A stretch of DNA of 64,000 nucleotides. It comes from Fistulifera solaris (lineage: Eukaryota). The notes under the pieces are model-generated. The model did not search any database and was not told the origin of the DNA. It was given only the letters and a program-made list of their open reading frames with translations. Position 1 is the first letter of the stretch, and each line of letters opens with the position of its first letter. The translations under genes were made by a program, and so were the position numbers. Positions 981 through 24,217 of this stretch are shown here, piece by piece. The stretch spans positions 186,001 to 250,000 of the forward strand of contig AP026123.1 of NCBI GenBank assembly GCA_030295235.1, written 5' to 3'.

Positions 981-1654
981 ATGCTTTCGTTCACTTCTTT
1001 GTGTAATTACCAGGTAAGGTTAAAAATCGACGATGAAGAGACCTCAACACACAACGAACAACCGTTATCGCACAAAACAACCAACGCCAAAAACAAAAAG
1101 ACGGTGCAGCGAGACAAGCATTTCTAATTACTAAAATGTAATTTGTCCCCGATAGCTAGTCATCAATTGACCTCGTCAACAGGAACAATGGGGCTTAGCT
1201 TTGGAAAGACGAATGGCGTGTGCAGGCCGAGTGCCATTTTTGGCTCGGCGTCGTGCTGTTTGGTGCGTTCCATTTTCAATTTCCCTTTTGTTTTTACTGT
1301 GAAAACATATTTGATCCGCGGCTCATTGGACATAGTTTGTCTTTTCCATGCTGACTGAAGAGTCTGGCAAATTTCAGCGGTCTGGGGCTGCTTCGTTTTC
1401 CCGGGCTTGTTGAGTTTCCAGCACGCCACGGCCGCATCTCAGTTCGTCTCTCATTCTTGCCATTAATCAAAAGCGTTAGATAATAGGTTTTGAGTTGATA
1501 TGAATTACTCTTTTGCAAAATAAACCTCTTTCGATACTTGCCAAGCAGAAAAGTAATGCACCGACGCCAACGACGCCCGACGCCCACATTGTACAGTACA
1601 TAAAATTCGTTCAACAGAGGAAAACTCTAAACAGAAATCGTCTTACTCCATAAT

Positions 1655-1812
1655 GAAAATTTCTCTCTGAAGTGAGAAAATTTCTCTCTTAGAGAGAGAT
1701 TTTCTCTCGATTTCTCCCTTAAGAGAGAAATTTTCTCCCTTAAAGAGAAATTTTCTCCCTATTTCTCTCTACAGAGAGAATTTCTCTCTATAGAGAGAAA
1801 ATTTCTCTCTAT
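1655..1812. repeat. Palindromic minisatellite block B, direct copy of block A
   Basis: Starts GAAAATTTCTCTCTGAAGTGAGAAAATTTCTCTC as block A does, with the same order of unit variants. Confidence 0.9.
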
Positions 1813-2054
1813 AATGACAAAAAATTGCTTAGAGACAAACGGCATTTAAGCTTATAGCATAAAACGTGTATCGGAATTTATCGCGAAATGTTGTACAATT
1901 GAGTAGAGTACAAATGTTTCCGTTGAAATAATTACTATATAAGCGTAAACTGTATAGTATGTTACGGAGAGACTTCCGACAAGCACCCTGCGCGAAGCTT
2001 CGCTTGTTTCTGTTTTCGAATATTCACGACTGAGCTTTAGGTGCAGGGACTGGT

Positions 2055-2522
2055 CTATCCGTAGTAGAACTTACCAGCATGTGCATTTGGAATGATAGGT
2101 ACAAATTTTCGGCTTTGTAAACCTTTTTGGAGCAAGTTGCGAAGCTCATCGACGCCCATTTCTCGGTACATTTGAGGAACCTTTTCGGAGAACTTAATCA
2201 TTGTGATGAATCTTTCTAAACTCGAGCTTTCGCTGCTATCGACTGCTTCGTCATAGTTATTGAAATCGAAGTCTGTTAGCGCATTTCCAGGGTCTCTCTT
2301 GAATTCTTCGAACAGATCTAAAACGAAGAGGTTCATTTCCTCCATGTCAAGGATACTATTTGACCAGTTGTCGGGTTCCTGATCGTTCTCAGTGGAAGGG
2401 CGCACCTCCGCATCGTCTATTACTTCGTCTTCCATCTCATTGATTAAGTGTGTGGTGAATTGCAACCGTATCCTTGCGGCTGAGAGAACGTTGTACCACG
2501 CTCTCGTCTTTGAATGGTGCAT
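2055..2522 (-). CDS. Hypothetical acidic protein; true start may be the internal MEDEVIDD
   Basis: 155-aa ORF with protein-like composition; no recognised motif. Confidence 0.45.
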   Translation of the reverse strand: MHHSKTRAWYNVLSAARIRLQFTTHLINEMEDEVIDDAEVRPSTENDQEPDNWSNSILDMEEMNLFVLDLFEEFKRDPGNALTDFDFNNYDEAVDSSESSSLERFITMIKFSEKVPQMYREMGVDELRNLLQKGLQSRKFVPIIPNAHAGKFYYG

Positions 2523-2937
2523 TGTGTCCGTTATATTTTGGATCTGGTCTTAATATCGGAGGTGATGGGTTGTTCTCTCTCACATTTTCGTTAGCCAATT
2601 AAAACAAGCTTGTTTCTACAGCCCTGCTATCGTTGTCCAAAGCGTTCTAAATTCGATACGACAACACAAAGAATTTCAAACTATAGCTGTTCTCATCGGA
2701 TTTCATTGGCCAATGAAAGATTTTGTGATTTCGATGATTCTGCTTTCAACGCTTGCTAACGGAGGCATAAGATTATTCGTCCTCACCGTCGTCGAACCTT
2801 CCGGTCACGTCTTGATACAAACAACCATTCAGGACGGATGCCGAAACTAAAGCACCAGTAATCTAGTTATATATAAGTATAATTTAGACAGTTATGTTGT
2901 CACGGCAAAATACCAAAAGCTCGCTGCATCCGTCTTT

Positions 2938-5113
2938 CTATGCAACTTTCTCCTCAACTTCCACTTCGGCCGGCTTATCGCCGTACAATCGACCGACAAT
3001 GTCGGCATAGGTCGTGATCACCTTGTGACGGCGGATACTCATCTTGGGTGTCAACATACCGTTCGCGGCGGTAAAAGGCGCTACAAATGCCCACTTCTGC
3101 GGAACTTCAAACTTCTTCATGCGACTGCAGTTGCTCTCGATAGCGTGGTCAATCAAATCTTTAACACGAGGATCATTGGCCAGTTCTTCCTCCGAGACGC
3201 TATCATCAACACCAACAGCAGTTCGGATTGCCGTCCACTCCGGGACCAAGAGTGCCACGTTGTACGGACGATTTGCACCTGTCAACACGACTTGGCTGAT
3301 AAAACGGCTCAAGCCAATGGCTTCTTCAATAGGCGTCGGTACAACGTATTTTCCGTTTTCTAGCTTGTACTGTTCCTTTACACGCCCAGTTACTCTGATA
3401 TAACCGTTGGCGTCTTTTTGTCCAAGATCTCCTGTATGGAACATACGTGCTGTACCATCCGGCGAGGACGTAATAACTTCGGCCGTTGCCTCCGGATTCT
3501 TGTAATAACCTTGCATCACATTGGAACCGGTGCAACAAATTTCGCCATCCTGTCCGTCGGCAACCTCGTTACCGTTTTCGTCTACAATATATACTTTTGT
3601 GTCTCCAACGGGCAAACCAACAGTACCAACCGCACGTTTGTAAGGAGTGTTTCGGGCAATGATAGGACTGCGGGAATCAGCGAGGTGAGAAAAATGGATG
3701 GACGATCAATTCCCAATGCTGCTCGACTTACCTTGTTTCAGTAAGGCCGTAACCTTCGCAAACGGGAATGCCAATATTGTCCATAAAATCGATGACTTCC
3801 GTAGGACACGCTGCACCTGCTACGTAGCCGTGTCTCATGTTTCCACCAAATCTATCACGAATCTTGCTAAGCACCAACGAATCGAGCGCCTTGTATCTGA
3901 GCTTTTCGAATGGTCCCAAAGGAGGTTCGACACCTAACTTGGCATTGACGTTGCGCCGACCCATGGCCAAAGCGGATTTCATGAGATTTTTGCGCAGCGG
4001 GCTGGCCGTTTCCATCGTGTTGTTGACGCCGTCGTAAATCCTCTTGTAAAGAGTGGGTACAGCAAACAATGTCGTCGGCTTGACCATTTGCAAATCTTCC
4101 AAAATTTTTGGGATTCCTCGCGCGATTCCGAGTGCCGCACCGTGCGATACGGCTGCCCACAGTTCACAGGTCTGTCCGTACGAATGTGCCCAGGGCAAAA
4201 AAAGCGAGGCTGATATCATTCTCACGAATTAGATCATGTGGATCATCAACACCCGAGCGTGCTCCTGCTTTTACGTTGGTAGCAAAGTTGTGATGCGACA
4301 ATTCAACACCTTTTGGCTTTCCGGTGGTTCCGCTGGTGTAAATAAGACCCGCCAAGTCATCCGGTGTGGGAGCGTTAATGAAGAGACCTTCCGAATCCGG
4401 CGCCACGAGAGAAAGAGCGGTCGAAAAGGCTTGCTGTTCACCCATTTCGGAGTTGAAACAAAAGCTCTCGCGGACCAAAGGGGTATTACGAAGAACTTGT
4501 GTTCGAACTTGAAGGTAAATGTCTTCGGTAGCACAAAAGACAACTTTCGCACCCGAATCATTGAGGATATAGGTCCAATCGGATGCCAACTGTGCTTCGT
4601 ACATAGGCACCATATTTGCGTTCAAACTGAAGCAAGCAGCGGCAACAGCAGCCCATTCCCAGCGGTTGTTAGAAATGACACCGACCTTGTCATGCTCGCC
4701 GATGCCTGACAAGAAAATGCGACGCATAGAAAATCAGTTATCGTGACGAAATAACGAGCGACTCGTGTTCATTCTTGAGCTTTGCACTTACCGAGATCTT
4801 TCAAAAGAGCACGCACATGGTCGACTTGCTGACCAAACTCCCCAAAGGACATGAACTCAAACTGATTGGATGCTTCCGAGTACGTTCCGAAAAGCCTCTT
4901 GGGCGCAAATACCTGACAAGCTCTCACTTGCATTTCATGAAGAGTATCAAAGTTGAGCAAACGATTTTCGTCAAGAATTCCCGCTGCCTGAAACTCCTTT
5001 TCACGGTCCGTAGCCAACGAACGCGTCGTCGTAACTGACAAGGGAGCCGTCTTACGAAACTCCCTCGAGAAACGGCGACTGGCGCCTCGAAGCAAAGCAA
5101 CGGAACTCGACAT
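2938..5113 (-). CDS. LACS: Long-chain acyl-CoA synthetase (AMP-binding), probable mitochondrial leader; introns ~4706-4791 and ~3668-3731; apparent extra base in A7 at 4197-4203
   Basis: AMP-binding motif IYTSGTTGKPKG, EGYGLTETSP across the splice, FHTGDLG, RVKEQYKLENGKYV, LTPKMSIRR; GT-AG splice sites restore the frame. Confidence 0.93.
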
Positions 5114-15871: not shown

Positions 15872-17281
15872 TCAAACTTCCATCTTTTCTCTTGCATGAG
15901 ACGCAACGATAGACGATGCCATCGAATGTTCGAGGGAACGTTGATCCAGGGCATAGTGGTTGAGCTTGGATAAAGCATCTGCTAAGACCGAACCGTCGGA
16001 TGATGACGTTCCTGTCGAAAACCCCGAAGAAGATGCCGATGACGAAGCTAAGGACACATGAGACGACGGAGAGTTGTTCGGAGATGATGCGACCGAAGGG
16101 GAAACTGTTGTCTCAACCGTCACGGCGCGTGCAACGCGGTCCTCTTCATCAACACAAAGATCAGACACCGGACTTGACTCTACCCGCTGGTCTGTTGTAA
16201 CGACACGAATTGTTTTCATCCACTCGGTTACCGCGGAAGCAGCGTTCGACTTGCTATCGATCGAAGAAGAACTCATGTCGACGTTGAACAAGTCCACGCT
16301 ATCATCGCTTTTATCTTCAAAGACGAACTCTTCCACAGAATTATCTTCGTCGTCTGCTTTAATGAATGCAGCCGTCGATTTGGTGATATTCCGACGTATA
16401 TGTGACAAAGTGCGTTGGGGCTGAGACCATTTCGTCGTGTAATTCTCCGATAAGAAACGCCGATACGGGGAAAGACAGTGCTCGGGGACAGCGGTAGAAA
16501 ACGGCGACTCAGTAATACTAGAGATCCGCCCAATTGATTCTAGATGACTTTCATTCTCCTGGGTGTTGGCCCCGGGGTTCCTAGCATTCGTTGAAGCACT
16601 AGGTGCGTCGTGATGACGCCGGTTGAATAGGACCAAGCGCTGAATCTCAATGTAGCCCCGGTCCTTGTGATGCTGGATCAGCATGCAGACTATTCCCAGC
16701 AAAATAGTACCACTGGTGCACATTAAGATGATGTCAAGCGTTGAAATGAGAGGATCCGTCGGAGTATCGGATTCAACCTGATCCGAAGTAACGTTGGAAA
16801 TAGAAGCCATTGGGCGCACCAACACGGTCGACACCGAGCCCAAGACGGGATCGGAGTTGATGAGAAACAAAAAATGCCCAAGAGATCTATTTTGAGCAAA
16901 ACTGAATTCTAACAGTTGACCTAATTGTCCTTGTAGCTGATCGTCGGTACGGTTTAAGAAGGTAACACCGGTAATGAGAAACTGAACACGAGTCGATCCG
17001 GATTCCGAGTTATTCGCTGATTTCAATGTGAGGTGTACAATGTCTTGTATCATAACCTCATTGTCATAAAAGTCTTGTGCTCCCTCTTTAGACTGTTGCA
17101 ACGTCAAAGTGTTGACAATAGCATCTTCGAAAGAGTGAAGAGCTTGCTTGTTCATCTCACCGCGCACCGGTCGCAAAAGCATGCGGTGCGGCAATGAAGA
17201 AATGAATCGTTCTTCTGCTTGAACACTCAGATGAAGACGAATGCTCGCAAAAGCAAGCCAGAATAGATGAGTGATCCTCAT
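15872..17281 (-). CDS. Type I single-pass membrane protein, hypothetical
   Basis: Signal peptide MRITHLFWLAFASIRLHLSVQA, TM helix IILMCTSGTILLGIVCMLI, Ser-rich cytosolic tail. Confidence 0.8.
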   Translation of the reverse strand: MRITHLFWLAFASIRLHLSVQAEERFISSLPHRMLLRPVRGEMNKQALHSFEDAIVNTLTLQQSKEGAQDFYDNEVMIQDIVHLTLKSANNSESGSTRVQFLITGVTFLNRTDDQLQGQLGQLLEFSFAQNRSLGHFLFLINSDPVLGSVSTVLVRPMASISNVTSDQVESDTPTDPLISTLDIILMCTSGTILLGIVCMLIQHHKDRGYIEIQRLVLFNRRHHDAPSASTNARNPGANTQENESHLESIGRISSITESPFSTAVPEHCLSPYRRFLSENYTTKWSQPQRTLSHIRRNITKSTAAFIKADDEDNSVEEFVFEDKSDDSVDLFNVDMSSSSIDSKSNAASAVTEWMKTIRVVTTDQRVESSPVSDLCVDEEDRVARAVTVETTVSPSVASSPNNSPSSHVSLASSSASSSGFSTGTSSSDGSVLADALSKLNHYALDQRSLEHSMASSIVASHAREKMEV

Positions 17282-17667
17282 GGTCGACAAGATTATTTGT
17301 TATCTATATCCATTTTCTCCGCCAAAAGCGGACGAGTGCTTGTCGGTCGACCATCGCATTGCTCAATACCAGTAACTATACTCAAGCTTGAGTTTAAAAG
17401 GTTAAGAATGCAAGCACATGAATGCTATCATCGTGGAAACTCCTTTCAACGATTTTTGTGCGCTTTAGATTTTCGTCGCAATGCGCGCAATAATGCTCAA
17501 TGCTGCATAATCAAGTCAAGCGCAATCGAGTCACGAACGGACGAGATCAGCCTAGAAGTGGAAGGCGGAAATGGAAAAGTTAGGCTGCATTTATGATACT
17601 ACTTCTGCGTCTTTCTACGCCTCGCTATAGTCAACAGATAAACGAGTTCGATTGGAATTAAGCTTTG

Positions 17668-18402
17668 AACAGTAGCAAGATACAGCGCTACAATGTCTAC
17701 GCGAATTTCGTGTAGCCGCCGTAGGAAATTTATCTCTGCAGGGGTACCCGGATATTGTGTATTTCGCCGTCGTCCATTCATTGGATCTGCAGCACTCAAA
17801 TGTCAATGTTACCTCGTCCATTGTATTTAAATGCATATCATTTCACAATAAGCGACATCGATTTAAAGACAAAGCGTTGAAGGAACGAATGATGCAACGC
17901 TTTGAAAGTTGACGTAGATTCCACGTAGCTTCTCGTAGGGAAATTTATCGACAGAGGGGTGACCCGGATATCGGGCAATTTCGATCACAACACTTATCGT
18001 GCGTCTTTTGGACACCAATGTCAACAAAATCATGCCTAACATCGCTTCCGTATGCATCAAGTATTAATCGACATTCGTTTGACCTGAAAACAAAAAACAG
18101 TAGATAGATACAGCGCTTTCAATGTCTACGCGAATTTCGTGTAGCCGCCGTAGGAAATTTATCTCTGCAGGGGTACCCGGATATTGTGTATTTCGCCGTC
18201 GTCCATTCATTGGATCTGCAGCACTCAAATGTCAATGTTACCTCGCCCATTGTATTTAAATGCATATCATTTCACAATAAGCGACATCGATTTAAAGACA
18301 AAGCGTTGAAGGAACGAATGATGCAACGCTTTGAAAGTTGACGTAGATTCCACGTAGCTTCTCGTAGGAAATTTATCGACAGAGGGGTGACCCGGATATT
18401 GT
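17668..18402 (+). repeat. Tandem 428-bp repeat (~1.7 units) built from two ~214-bp subunits
   Basis: 17668-17970 nearly identical to 18096-18400; core GTAGG(G)AAATTTATC..CAG(A)GGGGT(G)ACCCGGATAT occurs 4 times ~214 bp apart. Confidence 0.93.
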
Positions 18403-18592
18403 GACATTCGTTTTCTTTCGTGACAACGGACAGATGCCCACAATTTATCTTCCTACTTCCTACTCGGGGGGTAGCTTTTAGTAAAGCGGTAAGGCGTTTA
18501 TCGACCGCAACCCAACAACAAAACAAAAGTCTTCGTTTGCAACAAGCAAAGTCTTCGTCTTTTACTTTCCATTTGCAAATAAAACTTATAAG

Positions 18593-19126
18593 ATGGCGGA
18601 AACAAAAGCAAACCCAATGCGAGACATCAAAGTTGATAAGATGGTTATCAACTGCTGCGTCGGTGAATCGGGTGATCGATTGACCCGCGCCGCTCGTGTG
18701 TTGGAACAGCTCACGGGTCAGCAGCCCGTCTTCTCCAAGGCCCGTTACACCCTGCGATCTTTCGGTATCCGTCGTAACGAGAAGATCGCTGTGCATGTAA
18801 CAGTCCGCGGTGAGAAGGCTCTCGAAATTTTGGAGCGTGGTCTGAAGGTCAAGGAGTACGAGTTGCTCGACAAGAATTTCTCCGAGACGGGAAACTTTGG
18901 CTTTGGAATCAATGAGCACATCGATTTGGGTATCAAATACGATCCCACAACAGGTATTTACGGAATGGACTTCTTCGTGTGCCTGAACCGACCCGGAACT
19001 CGCGTTTCGCGACGCAAGATCCAACAAACGCGCATGGGCAAGAATCACAAGATTACCAAGCAAGATGCCATCAAATGGTTCCAAGATAAGTTTGAGGGTG
19101 TCGTTCTTGCGAACGCCGCAGCTTAA
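18593..19126 (+). CDS. RPL11: 60S ribosomal protein L11 (uL5)
   Basis: [47 protein letters not shown]. Confidence 0.99.
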
Positions 19127-19473
19127 AGTAAATTAATATAGTTGAATCATTTGCTGAGGTCACGATAGGTGTCGTTGTAGCCCCTGTCTTTAGTTGCTTG
19201 TAGCTGTAGCCTACCTGGTAGCAATATCTTCCATCCTCTAGTACAGTACCAACGCTCTTAAGCGCAACTAGAGCAACAGCAACAAATTTATAAACGCAGG
19301 ACAGGTTGCGAAGATGAGATGCTGACCAGTGACCAGGCAAGCATTAGCATCGCTTTGTTCCTTCGAACGGAAATCGGTTTATCCCTAATATTCAACTAAA
19401 ATCGGATTCGATATCCCTTGTGTAAAACCCAAATCTAAGGTATCTAATTGTTATGAAAACCTTAATGCCATGG

Positions 19474-19557
19474 GCTAGTTTGTTCGAGTGGTCTAAGAAG
19501 GCAGATTTAAGACCTGTTCCTCATTAGAGGGCGTGGGTTCGAACCCCACAGCTAGCA
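19474..19557 (+). tRNA. tRNA-Leu (anticodon TAA)
   Basis: Acceptor GCTAGTT/AGCTAGC+A, D arm TTCGAGTGGTCTAAGAA, anticodon loop TTTAAGA (one stem mismatch), long variable arm CCTC-ATTA-GAGG, T arm GTGGGTTCGAACCCCAC, followed by TTTT. Confidence 0.92.
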
Positions 19558-19608
19558 TTTTGCTGAATGGGCTCATTAGGGTCAATCTCGCGTTCCGAAT
19601 TCGAGGCA

Positions 19609-20814
19609 TTAAGGATTACTGCCGTGACTGATATTTGTTTTAGTCCCCAGTAGTGCAACAATGCCATCGCAACAACCGCATTTTTTGGTTGTTGTTGCTC
19701 GGATCAGCCATGTGATGAACTTGGGTGACTTCCTTATGGGCATTAGTAGCGCAGAAATCCATGCGACGCCGCTCCTTTTTGTTCTTGCAGTACTCGAACA
19801 TGATTTCCAGCCTCTTGGTAGACTCTCGCAGACTCGATTCATACCTGGAACAAATGTATGAGCGTCATTCTTGAGCGTTGCAATTGACATGTTTCAGCAC
19901 AAATCGGCACTTACCCGGTGTCCGGTTCATTAGCAGCATATTCTCTCGTTGCGTTACCCATTCCAGAAGATCCACACGATTGTCCCACCGTCGCCCCTTG
20001 TGATGCACGACGTGATTGACACTAGGTCGAGCTCCGAAATGAGACACAGCAACCAACCCAGCCACTGAGCATTTGTACCTGGTACCGTTGCAATCTTCAT
20101 CCGAAAGATTGACAAAGCGATAGTTGTCAGGGTCTGGCGCTGACAAGAGTAACTTATAAGAGCGCACCATCCAGCTGTCTACACGTGTCCCACCAGACTT
20201 CCACGATCGGTGACCAATCACTTCACCCGTTCCCTTGTTCAGATATTCTGTTGCCTTCTCTGTCGACACCCATCGGCGGTGACAAGCAACGACGAAGCCG
20301 GCCAGGTTCACATAATACACCACAGGGAGCAGAGGCAACCAATTGTTCGCCACATACACTCGCGTTCTCTTTTCCTTGTCGCCAAATCGCCCCTTCTTTT
20401 GTCCTTCCCAAACTGGGGTGAAGTCAGGGTTCTGTGCAACACGAAGACATTGCTCAAGGGTCAAAGTAGTTTTCTTCGTCCTTAGAGCGGCTTGAATGAA
20501 GCGTGGGACTTTGACCAAGGAGCTATCCCTGAACAATGAATTGACAATCGCAAGTTGCATGTAATACTCTTTGCCTTCGTCATCGGCATGAAAGCGGAAC
20601 CTTCCATGGTTGCCGTCCGGATCAATTCCCAAAATTCAGCCATCCCAACTTCATCCATGTACTGCGGAGGAGGGCAATTGTCGAAGCGGATACCCTTTGG
20701 ACGGGTCAAAGGATCAGCTGAAGGGTCGAACGTTCTTGCGTCTTGATAGGGCATCGAGGCCCATGGCAGCGGTGCCGTTTCTAGGGAATCAACGACTACC
20801 CTTTTGAATCTCAT
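19609..20814 (-). CDS. NUMOD4-like + HNH (HNH_3-type) endonuclease; apparent missing base at 20631-20634; probable intron 19845-19914
   Basis: WLPLLPVVYYVNLAGFV is NUMOD4-like; YRFVNL..SVAGLVAVSHFG..HVVHHKGRRWDNRVDLLEWVTQREN is the HNH motif; GTAAGT..TTCCAG splice is in frame with ORF 19609-19890. Confidence 0.75.
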
Positions 20815-21934
20815 CGTATTGATGATCGCCGGCGATGCGTTTTCAACAAACAAGTGAAATAATGAACGAGTTGACACGGACTCATGCGGGGTACAGTTCT
20901 TATTCTTCGATACTGTTGGAACTGGGAGACGACCCCCACGGGTCTAAAACACCGATTAAATGTGTTATTTGTCATCTTGCTTCAACTACAAGCAGTGTGA
21001 TGTATGATGTGTGATCGATGATAAACACGGAGGCGACTTGTTGTCGCCGGAAGCCGCAATTCAAGTCATTTTATAAAATCAACTCGCAAAACTCCTCCTC
21101 GCCCCACACTATCATCCAAAGAGAGAATCATCTGTGTTAATTAGTTTCCAAAAACGAAGGTCATTGACAAGATTTCTTTTTTTTTTTGGTGTTGACGTTT
21201 GGCTCCTCGAAGTGTTGAATGTGAACGAAAAAATGATTTCACAGTTGGCGGTTGGCGGTTGGCGGTCATCGTCATTCATCATTACTCCTCGTTCGGTTTT
21301 CGTTCGTTAAATGTGGTTTGTATTTGCTTGTCATTCCATTGAAAATTATTGTACAGAGTATTGAACTCGGTACCCATTCTACTCTGTCGTAGAAAGTAGA
21401 AGGCAGCAAGAATCATCATCAAAAGATCACGAATACCCGTTAGTGAATTACGGTAAAATCAAACTAAATTTTAATTATCGATTATCGACGATCACTTCTC
21501 TCTTTAAAAACAGCTAAATCCATCTAGTTCATCAGCTCGATCACCAAACATCCCAAACAATACCTTACTTCCTCAAATCGGCTGCGTGTAAATAGTCTGA
21601 AAAAGACAATACCTACTTCTTGGTAAGACGTTGGGAAACACCAATACTAGAGCAAAGCATTTGTCTTTGACAAACGTCTGAAATGCGAGGAAAGTAGGAA
21701 TGATCCAAACACACAAGACGGTTTTTAAAGCTCCACGGGTGCGGCAAGAAAAGTGAGCCTAAGCAATGCTGGTTTGATTCGAATATAATAGTGGACGCAC
21801 GATATGGCGTTTTTCCTACCTCGGGCTCTCGTTCTCTTGCGTGTAGATCTTTTCGCGGACTCGACGTTAATTGGCAAAGATAATCATAAATTTTAATAAT
21901 TATAATGCAAAAAAAACATTTCTTCTAACAAGGT

Positions 21935-23781
21935 TTACTTCTTAAATCGGTTGCGAATAAATCTGGAAACTCTTGCACGAGTGTTTGCAAAGCCACTTCC
22001 AGTCTGCTTTACCACTTTCGAACCCGTCTCCTTGACACGAGTTCCGGTTAGTTGTACGGATGCGCCAAGTTGCCGCCGGTAGCTTCCTTTGTAGCGCGCC
22101 AACTCTTCTTCTTTCTGACGTAGCTCATTTTCGAGGCTTGCCACCTTTCCCCTCAAACTAATGATCTCATCACCTTGCTGGGCGACTATTAACCTATAGC
22201 GTGCTTCTGACGCTGTTCTTTCTTTCTCTAACTCCTCTTTCTGCTTGGTCACGTCCCTTAATAACGACTGAAGCTGTACGCTGTTCTCTTTCGCTGCTTG
22301 CAACTCTGATTGCAGCTTCGTATTGCTGTTTCGTACTTCGTCGAGCTGCCTGTCGTATTTCTTCTTTAGCGTCGTTCTCTGCTCGCGGGATTCGCGCAGA
22401 GCTCCTTGCCATAAAGCCGTGAGCTCTGCACGAATGCTATCGTATCGCTTCTTCATTTGCTCTGTCTTTAATTTCCTTATTCGTTGCTCTTCCTTGAGCT
22501 CAAACTCTAATCTCCCCCTTCTCCGATTGAAAATCCAACCGTTCCTCCCGTAGTTGACTCTCCACCACTCGAATCTTGGCTTGCTCTTCCGCGATCTGAG
22601 CTTCTAGTTCTGCTTTCTCCTCTTCAAACTGCTTCAATTCCCGGGCCAATCGATCGGTCAGCATTTTGACTTTGATTTGTTCTTCTAGGAGCTTGTCCTT
22701 CAAATCTGCTTCTGTTTTCTGATACAGCTTTTCTGCTTCTTTCAAATACTTTTCCACCTGTTCTAAGCGTGCTTTGGTTTCGCCTATTTCATCTTGCATT
22801 TCCTTCGTCACTTCCTTGGTCGCTTCGCGTTCTCGATCCAACGCCCGCTGCGACTCTTCCAAGGCAGCACGCTGATCTTCCAACCGGGTCCTCAAGGATT
22901 CGCGTTCCTTGTTATACGCTTCCTGCGTCTTTTTTAACTCTTTTTCCGCAGCTTCTACCAGTAATTCCTGCTGCTTCAATTGTTGTTCAACCTTGAGTCG
23001 ATCGTCCATGAATTTGTTTTTCTCGGCATCCCACTGCGATTGAATTTCGGAAAGGCGTTTCTTCTCCCGATCGACCGTTTTTTGTAATTCGTCTTTTTCT
23101 TTTTGAAATTCCATCTGCTGGAACTCCAGTGTGTCTTCGACCGATAACAATCGCTCTCGCAGCTCTTCGGCGCGGTTCTTTTCCGATTTGAGTTGATTTT
23201 TGCAATGCCGGCAGCTGTCCCTGAAGAATCGAAACTTCGCGTTCCAATTTCTCCTGCTGCTCGGATTGTTCGGCCAGAATCTCGTCTTTGTCTTGCAGTT
23301 GATTCAAATACTGTTCCAGTTTCTCGCGTATCGTCATCCGCTCTTTCGCCGCTTGCTGCTGTCCTTGTTGCAATGCCGCTTCTTTCGTGGCCAATTCGCG
23401 CCTTAAACGAATCAACTCGCTTTCTAATGTTTCGACTCCAACATTGACTTTTTCCGATTCTTCCAGTAATTCTTCGTAACGAAACGCCGGAGGCGGTGTA
23501 TCCGGAGGTTTGGGGGCAAACTTGAACAGAGTCGCGAGAGGATTGTCGTTCTGGTCGGGTTGACCCGGTGGGGGAACGGGCGTCATACTTCCATTAATTT
23601 CCGACTCCTCTTCTACAACACTCGCTTCTTCTGCTTCTTCTGTCGCAAATAGAAAGGGGTATTGACGATGAAAGGCACGATGGCTAGAAGACGGTAGAAA
23701 CGCAAGGCATACACGGTTTGGGAGGAGGAGGGCCAGCAATACCCATTTTATGAGCAAAAGCTTGTCTTTGCGCAACGCCAT
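21935..23781 (-). CDS. Long coiled-coil protein with bipartite plastid-type leader; homopolymer frameshifts at ~23197-23201 and ~22514-22518
   Basis: Signal peptide ending VCLA-FLPS; three consecutive E/K/Q/L-rich ORFs join after single-base corrections. Confidence 0.8.
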
Positions 23782-24217
23782 TGCTTCGTTTCGTCGTTAG
23801 TTGTGGTCACGGGCTATCGGATTGTGTATTAGGTTGTATAGATAAATAATAAATGGCGTCCGTAACAGAATGCTTTTGAAATGCAACAACGGAGCGCGTA
23901 TCATCATCATGTTGAACGTTTGTCGCGTGACTGGTTCATCGTTGGTGGGAGGTTGAATCGCGAGTGAGTTGCAGTCGCGTTCAAGCGGGACCCATTGAAT
24001 ATAATTTCTGTCCATCCGCGATCCGACCCGTGGAAGACGGAAGACACCACGCAAAAGACGCCAAAGAAATTTTTTCCGAAATCCATTTTCAAAGTTGCTG
24101 CAACAACTTGCAACTTGCAACCTGCAACAACCATAACCACGTTAACAACTTTGAAAGAAGAACCTTAACGTGTCATCGGAAATAGATTTGCCTTTTCGAG
24201 TTCGCTCAACAACAATC

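Follow-up and report, generated by a model that had tools for sequence, protein, structure and literature searches.

Among the closest known systems to the gene considered here is I-HmuI (PDB ID: 1U3E), an HNH homing nickase that is encoded within an intron of a Bacillus phage and whose DH...N residues we take to be its base and metal ligands. HNH endonucleases are also found in phage T5 (F-TflI, F-TflII as well as F-TflIV), where they are reportedly encoded in the tRNA region of the phage. The core of the I-HmuI type is that of a group 2 His-Me finger nuclease (according to the accessible part of PMC5714182), and its combination with other modules as NUMOD4-HNH_3-AP2 is known from phages and has been noted in a Symbiodinium polinton-like virus (accessible text of PMC12220804). 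A gene with a core of this type is present in the diatom Fistulifera solaris, in a stretch of 64,000 nucleotides (nt; assembly GCA_030295235.1, contig AP026123.1, positions 186,001 to 250,000) that was analyzed as a whole and is referred to as the window; it occupies positions 19609-20814 of the minus strand and lies tail-to-tail with a tRNA-Leu(UAA) gene.

What the locus holds is probably a shortened member of a gene family of diatom nuclei, one that would descend from I-HmuI-type (NUMOD4-like plus HNH_3) homing endonucleases, and most likely it has no tie to the tRNA-Leu gene other than proximity. This interpretation, which we hold with good but incomplete confidence, builds on the homology of the gene to that group, on its fold, on its retained His and Asn residues, on its truncation, and on the host-like DNA in which it sits between host genes. 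A preliminary description, made from the letters of the window, had recognized a minus-strand HNH gene tail-to-tail with tRNA-Leu, and the open reading frame (ORF) list, Pfam HNH_3, PHROG, ARAGORN and Rfam all agree with that arrangement. The spacing of about 50 bp given there is likewise borne out: the distance from the 3' end of the tRNA to the end of the frame obtained after a 70-nt splice (19609) is 51 nt, and for the gene a range of 51-83 nt applies.

The HNH module is read from a minus-strand ORF (19865-20635) that contains ...HVVHHKGRRWDNRVDLLEWVTQREN and, towards its end, ...SVNHVVHHKGRRWDNRVDLLEWVTQRENMLLMNRTPGKCRFVLKHVNCNAQE followed by the stop codon. Pfam HNH_3 (PF13392), a check that the preliminary description had proposed, matches this ORF above the cut-off of 24.8 bits by a narrow margin (25.9 bits, E = 7.4e-6), and reaches 26.8 bits with P0004, the intact form of the protein from another assembly; the match covers residues 194-233 of P0001 (19937-20056, minus strand) and includes the putative catalytic residues HH...N. 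The same ORF matches six PHROG families, every one of them named HNH endonuclease (best E = 3.8e-10), and in a sequence profile search I-HmuI is the only PDB match under E = 0.01 (E = 8.3e-5). A Protein Atlas search, whose best score of 0.83 is a lead only, returned matches that are all of HNH_3 type. Pfam, PHROG, profile and fold thus agree on an I-HmuI/HNH_3 type, and the earlier assignment of the core to the nucleases of phages and large viruses stands. The companion check for NUMOD4 turned out otherwise, as Pfam NUMOD4 (PF07463) gives no match to the window ORF at E ≤ 1 and scores no higher than 16.9 bits (cut-off 23.4) on the relative P0012; because of this missing profile match, the NUMOD4-like segment claimed in the preliminary description is identified from structure (the I-HmuI sheet and the BFVD matches) and not from Pfam.

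The structural evidence comes from an AlphaFold2 model of P0004 built with a 25-sequence alignment (mean predicted local distance difference test score, pLDDT, 78.9; predicted template modelling score, pTM, 0.78), in which 155 of the 329 residues have a pLDDT of at least 90. The modelled region 19928-20524 (minus strand) would adopt an I-HmuI-like fold consisting of an N-terminal sheet, an inserted hairpin and a beta-beta-alpha-metal core. A VIA-align structural search against representatives places 1u3e_M first (Z 10.8, root-mean-square deviation 1.9 Å over 99 residues, 26% identity), with the next entry at Z 3.8; residues 111-309 of the P0004 model superpose on residues 1-100 of the I-HmuI chain. 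In Foldseek 1u3e is also the top PDB match (E = 3.8e-3), with nothing at E ≤ 0.001. The predicted viral structures of BFVD gave 60 matches at E ≤ 0.001; among the 50 listed, all are HNH or NUMOD4 proteins of phages or giant viruses, and the top match (E = 4e-6) comes from a phage and bears the name NUMOD4.

In the model, the locus protein thus appears to share with I-HmuI both the beta-beta-alpha-metal core and the sheet ahead of it, which is predicted from residue 111 of P0004. Several features set the two apart. The locus protein has about 110 additional N-terminal residues and the inserted hairpin, and it lacks the C-terminal DNA-binding part of I-HmuI, of which only residues 1-100 align; it is encoded by a nuclear gene with a spliceosomal intron, whereas I-HmuI sits inside a group I intron; and it has His in place of the Asp that precedes the catalytic His. 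Within the additional N-terminal region, residues ~37-110 are conserved in the family and confidently modelled from about residue 60; no fold match above Z 3.8 was obtained for them in the search with the whole model, the region not having been folded alone.

The putative active site is formed by the pair HH (P0004 residues 284-285) and N305, which align to DH...N of I-HmuI (...VVHH...N against VVDH...N). Among the 25 aligned family sequences, at least 90% retain H285, and R276 and W299 are invariant. The preliminary description had doubted that the protein is active, citing VAGLVA and the absent Asp. A His does replace the Asp, but the doubt is weakened by the conservation of the catalytic His across the family and by the alignment of His and Asn to those of I-HmuI. 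The 316-amino-acid (aa) protein could still bind metal and nick or cut DNA, as far as its residues allow a prediction.

In the window itself the gene is interrupted: its N-terminal part (ATG at 20814, MRFKRVVVD...) is out of frame with the HNH ORF, and the sequence is one base short near 20593, at a 1-nt indel site (20588-20598, minus strand) in a short homopolymer context. The preliminary description was right that a distinctive N-terminal region exists, and it is specific to the family, but in the window it lies in the other frame, and the break near 20593 had been overlooked. In three other assemblies, which are otherwise identical to the window, the reading frame crosses the junction without a break (...EGSAFHADDEGK... 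/ ...MEGSAFHADDEGKEYY...); their intact ORFs are P0004 (329 aa, JGI contig), P0170 (337 aa, NCBI contig) and P0171 (316 aa, 2462-nt Logan contig), which share the C-terminus ...NRTPGKCRFVLKHVNCNAQE. At the same junction the more distant relative P0006 reads SAFHADDDD. Two independent genomic contigs (X1 and X2; 19526-22010, ~2.47 kb) differ from the window almost exclusively by single-base gaps (no substitutions and four gaps for X1; two substitutions and three gaps for X2), and the earlier assembly of the species was obtained by pyrosequencing (as stated in the accessible part of bioRxiv 10.1101/2021.11.10.468027). From the read-through in three assemblies, the gap-only pattern of the contig differences and the pyrosequenced earlier assembly, we conclude that the frame break is, by all indications of these comparisons, an assembly indel. 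We likewise conclude that exon 1 (19915-20814, minus strand), which runs from the ATG (MRFKR...) to ...NRTPG and encodes, in two frames of the window, an N-terminal region specific to the family together with the NUMOD4-like sheet and the HNH core, is an intact ORF of 316 codons from its ATG. Frame breaks elsewhere in the assembly of the window may be artefacts too.

The gene model deposited at the locus, FisN_5Hu087 (P0005; window 19640-20560), starts at MQLAIVNS, downstream of the indel, and contains an extra frame-jumping intron that excises the HNH motif; it then takes the GTAAGT..CAG intron into the YESSLREST frame. Because the HNH motif is spliced out of the model, FisN_5Hu087 has no precomputed Pfam domain. 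Judged against the reading frames described above, the model is probably wrong.

An exhaustive profile-free protein search with this gene found 198 proteins at E ≤ 1e-3, of which 18 are at E ≤ 1e-10. The best matches are three other F. solaris genes: FisN_6Hu206, FisN_4Hu481 and FisN_12Lu391. The closest paralogue, FisN_6Hu206 (P0007; 1013 aa), is 63% identical over exon 1 (E = 1e-90) and carries two HNH_3 stretches (E = 1.5e-14); P0009, an exon-1 ORF that falls in one cluster of at least 90% identity with P0154 (FisN_4Hu481), is 47% identical to exon 1 of the locus. By sequence similarity, the family has at least four annotated genes in Fistulifera solaris and many environmental relatives, numerous unnamed proteins from environmental contigs being among the further matches; when 20 clusters of relatives were looked up, only the F. 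solaris ones bore an organism name. A profile of exon 1 that includes the family-specific N-terminal region matches 44 stored family proteins. The weaker matches (E from 1e-9 to 1e-4) cover the HNH region only and are typical phage-style NUMOD4/HNH_3/NUMOD1 proteins.

The two HNH_3 stretches of FisN_6Hu206, together with an AP2 match below threshold in the environmental relative P0011 (28.2 bits against 33.3; P0011 also has HNH_3), indicate that full-length members comprise exon 1 with its N-terminal region and HNH module, an intron, and a second NUMOD4-like/HNH module with an AP2-like tail. Searching with the second module alone (P0154 residues 195-428) yielded one protein, a fragment of the same gene. 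The ends of the paralogues vary: FisN_12Lu391 (P0016) has an acidic N-terminal extension of ~290 residues and ends within the fold of exon 1, and FisN_6Hu206 has ~450 extra residues beyond its AP2-like part. Either the family is structurally unstable or the gene models are poor.

The position of the intron was deduced from the ends of the family proteins, not from DNA. Of the 44 stored proteins (among them a few near-duplicates and the forms from the window itself), 22 end with no residue past the last position of the exon-1 profile and four more end within two residues of it; most ORF-called relatives stop right after ...KENxDP[QK] or ...NRTPG. The gene models P0007 and P0154, by comparison, continue through G|Y(E/D)SSLREST into the second module, and P0011 and its copies also continue. 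Because the stop position is fixed in relatives that are just 20-60% identical, we infer that the family intron has a phase-2 donor (xx|GTAAGT or xx|GTGAGT), whose G would complete the codon and be followed by TAA or TGA. The preliminary description had proposed a 70-nt GTAAGT..CAG intron in the locus gene. Such a stretch (GTAAGT...TTCCAG; 19845-19914, minus strand) is present exactly at the conserved intron position of the family, which makes a genuine intron of ancestral origin very likely; its donor phase, however, is off by one base. At the locus the run of G reads GGG, so that the donor falls in phase 1 instead of phase 2, within the same codon as the family position, and all three of the other assemblies agree on ...NRTPGKCRF... 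at this point. The donor would have lost one G, and canonical splicing would leave the ancestral frame.

Three readings of the 3' part of the gene follow. Unspliced, the frame runs to a stop codon at 19865-19867 (minus strand; ...NRTPGKCRFVLKHVNCNAQE at its end) and gives the 316-aa protein; this stop is the one found in the ORF list and in three assemblies. With the canonical splice at the GGG donor, the ancestral reading is put out of frame, and the predicted product continues as G-MNRVCESLPRGW...HGSNP before a stop (19609-19844, minus strand), a 77-residue tail without a homologue. A weak GTGCCG donor 4 nt downstream would remove 66 nt and continue in frame as ...NRTPGK-YESSLREST..., ending at 19640.

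The ancestral frame of exon 2 is still recognizable as a remnant of 67 residues (19640-19844, minus strand) that holds the YESSLREST linker, a decayed HNH motif (VHHMADPSNNNQKMRLLRW) and a stop. Over its residues 1-27 (YESSLRESTKRLEIMFEY...) it resembles the FisN_6Hu206 linker (residues 316-342; BLASTP E = 4e-6), and VHHMADPSNNNQKMRLLRW matches the HNH motifs of P0154 (E = 4e-4) and P0007 (E = 0.012). The suggestion of the preliminary description that a second, decayed HNH could be read from the last exon, in the frame 'QVHHMADPSNNN', is thereby modestly supported, since this frame exists and is homologous to the paralogues; the 'other frame' of that description is nevertheless the same as the frame of unspliced exon 1. 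By tblastn, both the NUMOD4-like stretch between linker and motif and everything beyond the motif, including the AP2-like part, are absent from the remnant, and Pfam gives no match to it. Exon 2 as a recent duplicate of the HNH of exon 1 was ruled out by DNA alignment (score 16 against 17.4 ± 2.0 for shuffles).

Compared with the double-HNH proteins FisN_6Hu206 and FisN_4Hu481, which end in an AP2-like tail, the locus has the intron position and the YESSLREST linker in common with them; it lacks their second NUMOD4-like and AP2-like parts, its second HNH shows decay, and there is a one-base shift in the phase of its donor. Exon 2 has shrunk to the 67-codon remnant, whose stop leaves about 80 nt to the tRNA gene, and the likeliest product would be a 316-aa single-module HNH protein, either unspliced or with a short non-homologous tail. 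Because the modules that give its relatives their sequence specificity are lost, the gene is probably a non-mobile relic.

The same evidence bears on a different explanation, namely that this is a domesticated host gene, whose single-module or weak-donor spliced protein serves under selection as a repair, defence or regulatory nuclease unrelated to the tRNA. We regard this as somewhat unlikely. It would account well for an exon 1 whose 316 codons form an open frame in three assemblies, for the kept catalytic His and Asn (the His being conserved across the family) and for the confidence of the model (pTM 0.78; 155 of 329 residues at a pLDDT of at least 90), and the conserved spliceosomal intron and the host-like composition point to long residence in the nucleus. 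It is less easily reconciled with an exon 2 that is decayed and out of phase, with the apparent absence of the gene from the other subgenome (described below), which suggests that it is dispensable, and with the lack of a named orthologue in other sequenced diatoms among the 20 clusters looked up.

The viral resemblance of the core raises a further explanation, that the locus is what is left of a virus or polinton-like element which integrated recently and brought along the HNH gene together with the tRNA. The occurrence of NUMOD4-HNH_3-AP2 proteins in the Symbiodinium polinton-like virus (accessible text of PMC12220804) and the best fold matches in BFVD, which are HNH proteins of phages and giant viruses, are in its favor. 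The protein of that virus has similar modules and a protist setting and was matched to I-HmuI by its authors, so that the two are alike by description; it resides in a viral element, whereas the gene at the locus lies between host genes and lacks the AP2 part. Against recent integration, no other viral gene is found nearby, the flanks being the genes for ribosomal protein uL5 and a host coiled-coil protein; the G+C content of the HNH segment (0.48-0.51) is host-like when compared with its flanks (0.43-0.50); the spliceosomal intron is conserved in the family; and the uL5-tRNA region has a second, homoeolog-like contig, which makes the tRNA gene probably ancestral. When viral contigs were scanned twice, 40 and 8 pattern matches were obtained, none of which was confirmed as a relative. 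We therefore consider a recent viral fragment very improbable. A metagenome scan with a four-sequence alignment returned only 44 phage-type HNH_3 loci, which align to residues 206-329 of the query with 30-59% identity, and no diatom paralogue DNA. The preliminary description had spoken of a virus-derived nuclease; as a recent insert this is not supported, in view of the age of the diatom family, a closest paralogue at only 63% identity, the host G+C and host neighbours, and the lack of relatives in the viral contigs scanned.

The remaining question is whether the tRNA-Leu gene has anything to do with the nuclease. It lies at 19474-19557 on the plus strand (anticodon UAA; ARAGORN, and Rfam RF00005 with 48.6 bits against a gathering score of 29) and is followed immediately by TTTT (19558-19561). 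ARAGORN finds no second tRNA gene in the 64-kb window, and the Rfam scan of the window found no RNA families besides it. The juxtaposition resembles that of phage T5 in that an HNH gene stands beside tRNA genes (the T5 location being, as said, by report); unlike the T5 tRNA cluster, the locus has a single nuclear tRNA gene, on the opposite strand.

One explanation of this juxtaposition is that the gene is, or once was, a selfish nuclease of HNH type from a family that inserts beside or into tRNA genes by cutting near a gene transcribed by RNA polymerase III (Pol III) and being copied in during repair. The location itself speaks for it, the gene lying tail-to-tail with, and 51-83 nt from, the sole tRNA gene in 64 kb, and so does the finding that the segment apparently exists in one subgenome only, with no second F. 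solaris protein above 63% identity found in the collections searched. In each of the two genomic runs, contig depth is about doubled over the flanks (17000-19573 and 21914-24000), which have second contigs that are ~4-10% different, and 19574-21913 is covered by the window's own contig only, with no joint across the segment listed. Because of this single contig depth and the lack of a second protein above 63% identity, the other subgenome seems to lack the HNH gene and its upstream DNA (19.6-21.9 kb), or to have them in strongly diverged form. Given that 9007 homoeologous pairs are counted in the species, alongside 2441 genes on one homoeologue only (accessible part of PMC5935921), such an absence alone is not unusual.

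As regards the tRNA itself, the figures available from the same source (76 predicted tRNA genes and ~20,455 genes in the genome; PMC5935921) imply that a random gene adjoins a tRNA gene about 0.7% of the time, which by itself would favor targeting. Within the window, however, the chance of adjoining its single tRNA gene is a few per cent, and in the control set of phage-type HNH_3 loci any tRNA is present in 4 of 44, and within 250 nt in 1 of 44; where a window holds one tRNA gene, a single adjacency carries no significance and does not exceed chance. One metagenome contig (L025, region 501-2131; 2.3 kb in all) provides an example of the phage-style association of a tRNA cluster with an HNH gene: it has four tRNA genes (Asn, Ser, Leu and Tyr) and a phage-type HNH_3 match 244 nt after the last of them. 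At the F. solaris locus there is no split or duplicated tRNA-Leu; no pieces of tRNA-Leu longer than 12 nt occur elsewhere in the window, no second tRNA-like match at E ≤ 1 occurs in 17000-24000, and no direct or inverted repeats of note (terminal repeat or target-site duplication) flank the locus. Nor does the 63% identity of the closest paralogue give any sign of recent copying, and the DNA-binding modules that would confer site specificity are absent. The targeting of tRNA loci proposed in the preliminary description thus finds no trace at this locus, and we hold that explanation to be quite unlikely.

A broader version applies to the family and not to this gene alone. The double-HNH/AP2-like genes would then be nuclear homing-type elements that settle beside or in Pol III tRNA genes, their two nickase modules together making a double-strand break and the AP2-like part reading the target, and the present locus would be a fossil of such an element in just one of the two subgenomes that this allodiploid diatom has. 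This conjecture is scarcely less doubtful than that of a tRNA-targeting nuclease at the locus.

We therefore return to the interpretation of the locus as a cut-down family member beside an unrelated tRNA gene, against which four points must be weighed. The product and the splice form are predictions from sequence alone. The weak in-frame GTGCCG donor (66 nt) means that exon 2 may be less dead than it looks. The 316 open codons and the catalytic residues fit a working gene as well as they fit a relic. Lastly, 19.6-21.9 kb is, to judge by contig depth, single-copy between flanks that have a second contig of ~95% identity, a pattern that a mobile segment gained or lost would produce.

The surroundings of the gene are those of host DNA. 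Upstream of exon 1, the preliminary description had reported ~1.1 kb of non-coding DNA. This is correct for 20815-21676, in which the ORF list, Rfam and the repeat search show no notable ORF, RNA family or repeat, and of which no diverged repeats were found elsewhere in the window; it is not correct for 21677-21911, where an RNA contig from run X4 matches the window with 0 differences and which is probably the 3' untranslated region of the coiled-coil gene that ends at 21935 (minus strand, as inferred from the neighbouring ORF). This neighbour is expressed, as seen from its RNA contig. A 29-nt near-repeat with one gap (21565-21593 against 21935-21962) was noticed post hoc; its local alignment score of 31 compares with 17.9 ± 2.5 for shuffles and was reached by 0 of 300 shuffles, and its second copy (21935-21962) corresponds to the last codons and stop of the coiled-coil gene. 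The neighbour on the other side is the uL5 gene (Pfam E = 2e-22; poly(A) RNA contig); an identical uL5 protein is found on two contigs. The uL5 mRNA has its 3' end at 19148, where an X4 RNA contig passes into a poly(A) run, 325 nt before the tRNA gene. No X4 RNA contigs fall on 19340-21445, and the run is small and hence uninformative on expression there. Just upstream of the uL5 gene, at 17691-18374, two 255-nt direct repeats that are 99% alike lie 429 nt apart; in both genomic runs their contig depth is 1000-3000, against 15-45 around them, with many joints and loose ends, and this is a high-copy repeat of the genome.

Taken alone, the locus is a modest result: it adds one more eukaryotic nuclear member to the I-HmuI/HNH_3 group, for which a table in a 2017 survey appears to count just 28 eukaryotic sequences (PMC5714182, a count that depends on the meaning of columns whose headings lie outside the accessible text). 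Full-text searches of the open literature, which leave subscription journals mostly uncovered, returned no description of such a diatom nuclear family. New with respect to the known systems are the N-terminal region of the family, its inserted hairpin, the arrangement of two HNH modules in tandem and a spliceosomal intron at a conserved position; these are features of the family, and the locus is without half of them. What the locus does document is a nuclease family whose two modules are separated by a conserved intron. Should it be true that the genes of this family move and prefer tRNA genes, they would represent a new kind of nuclear mobile element.

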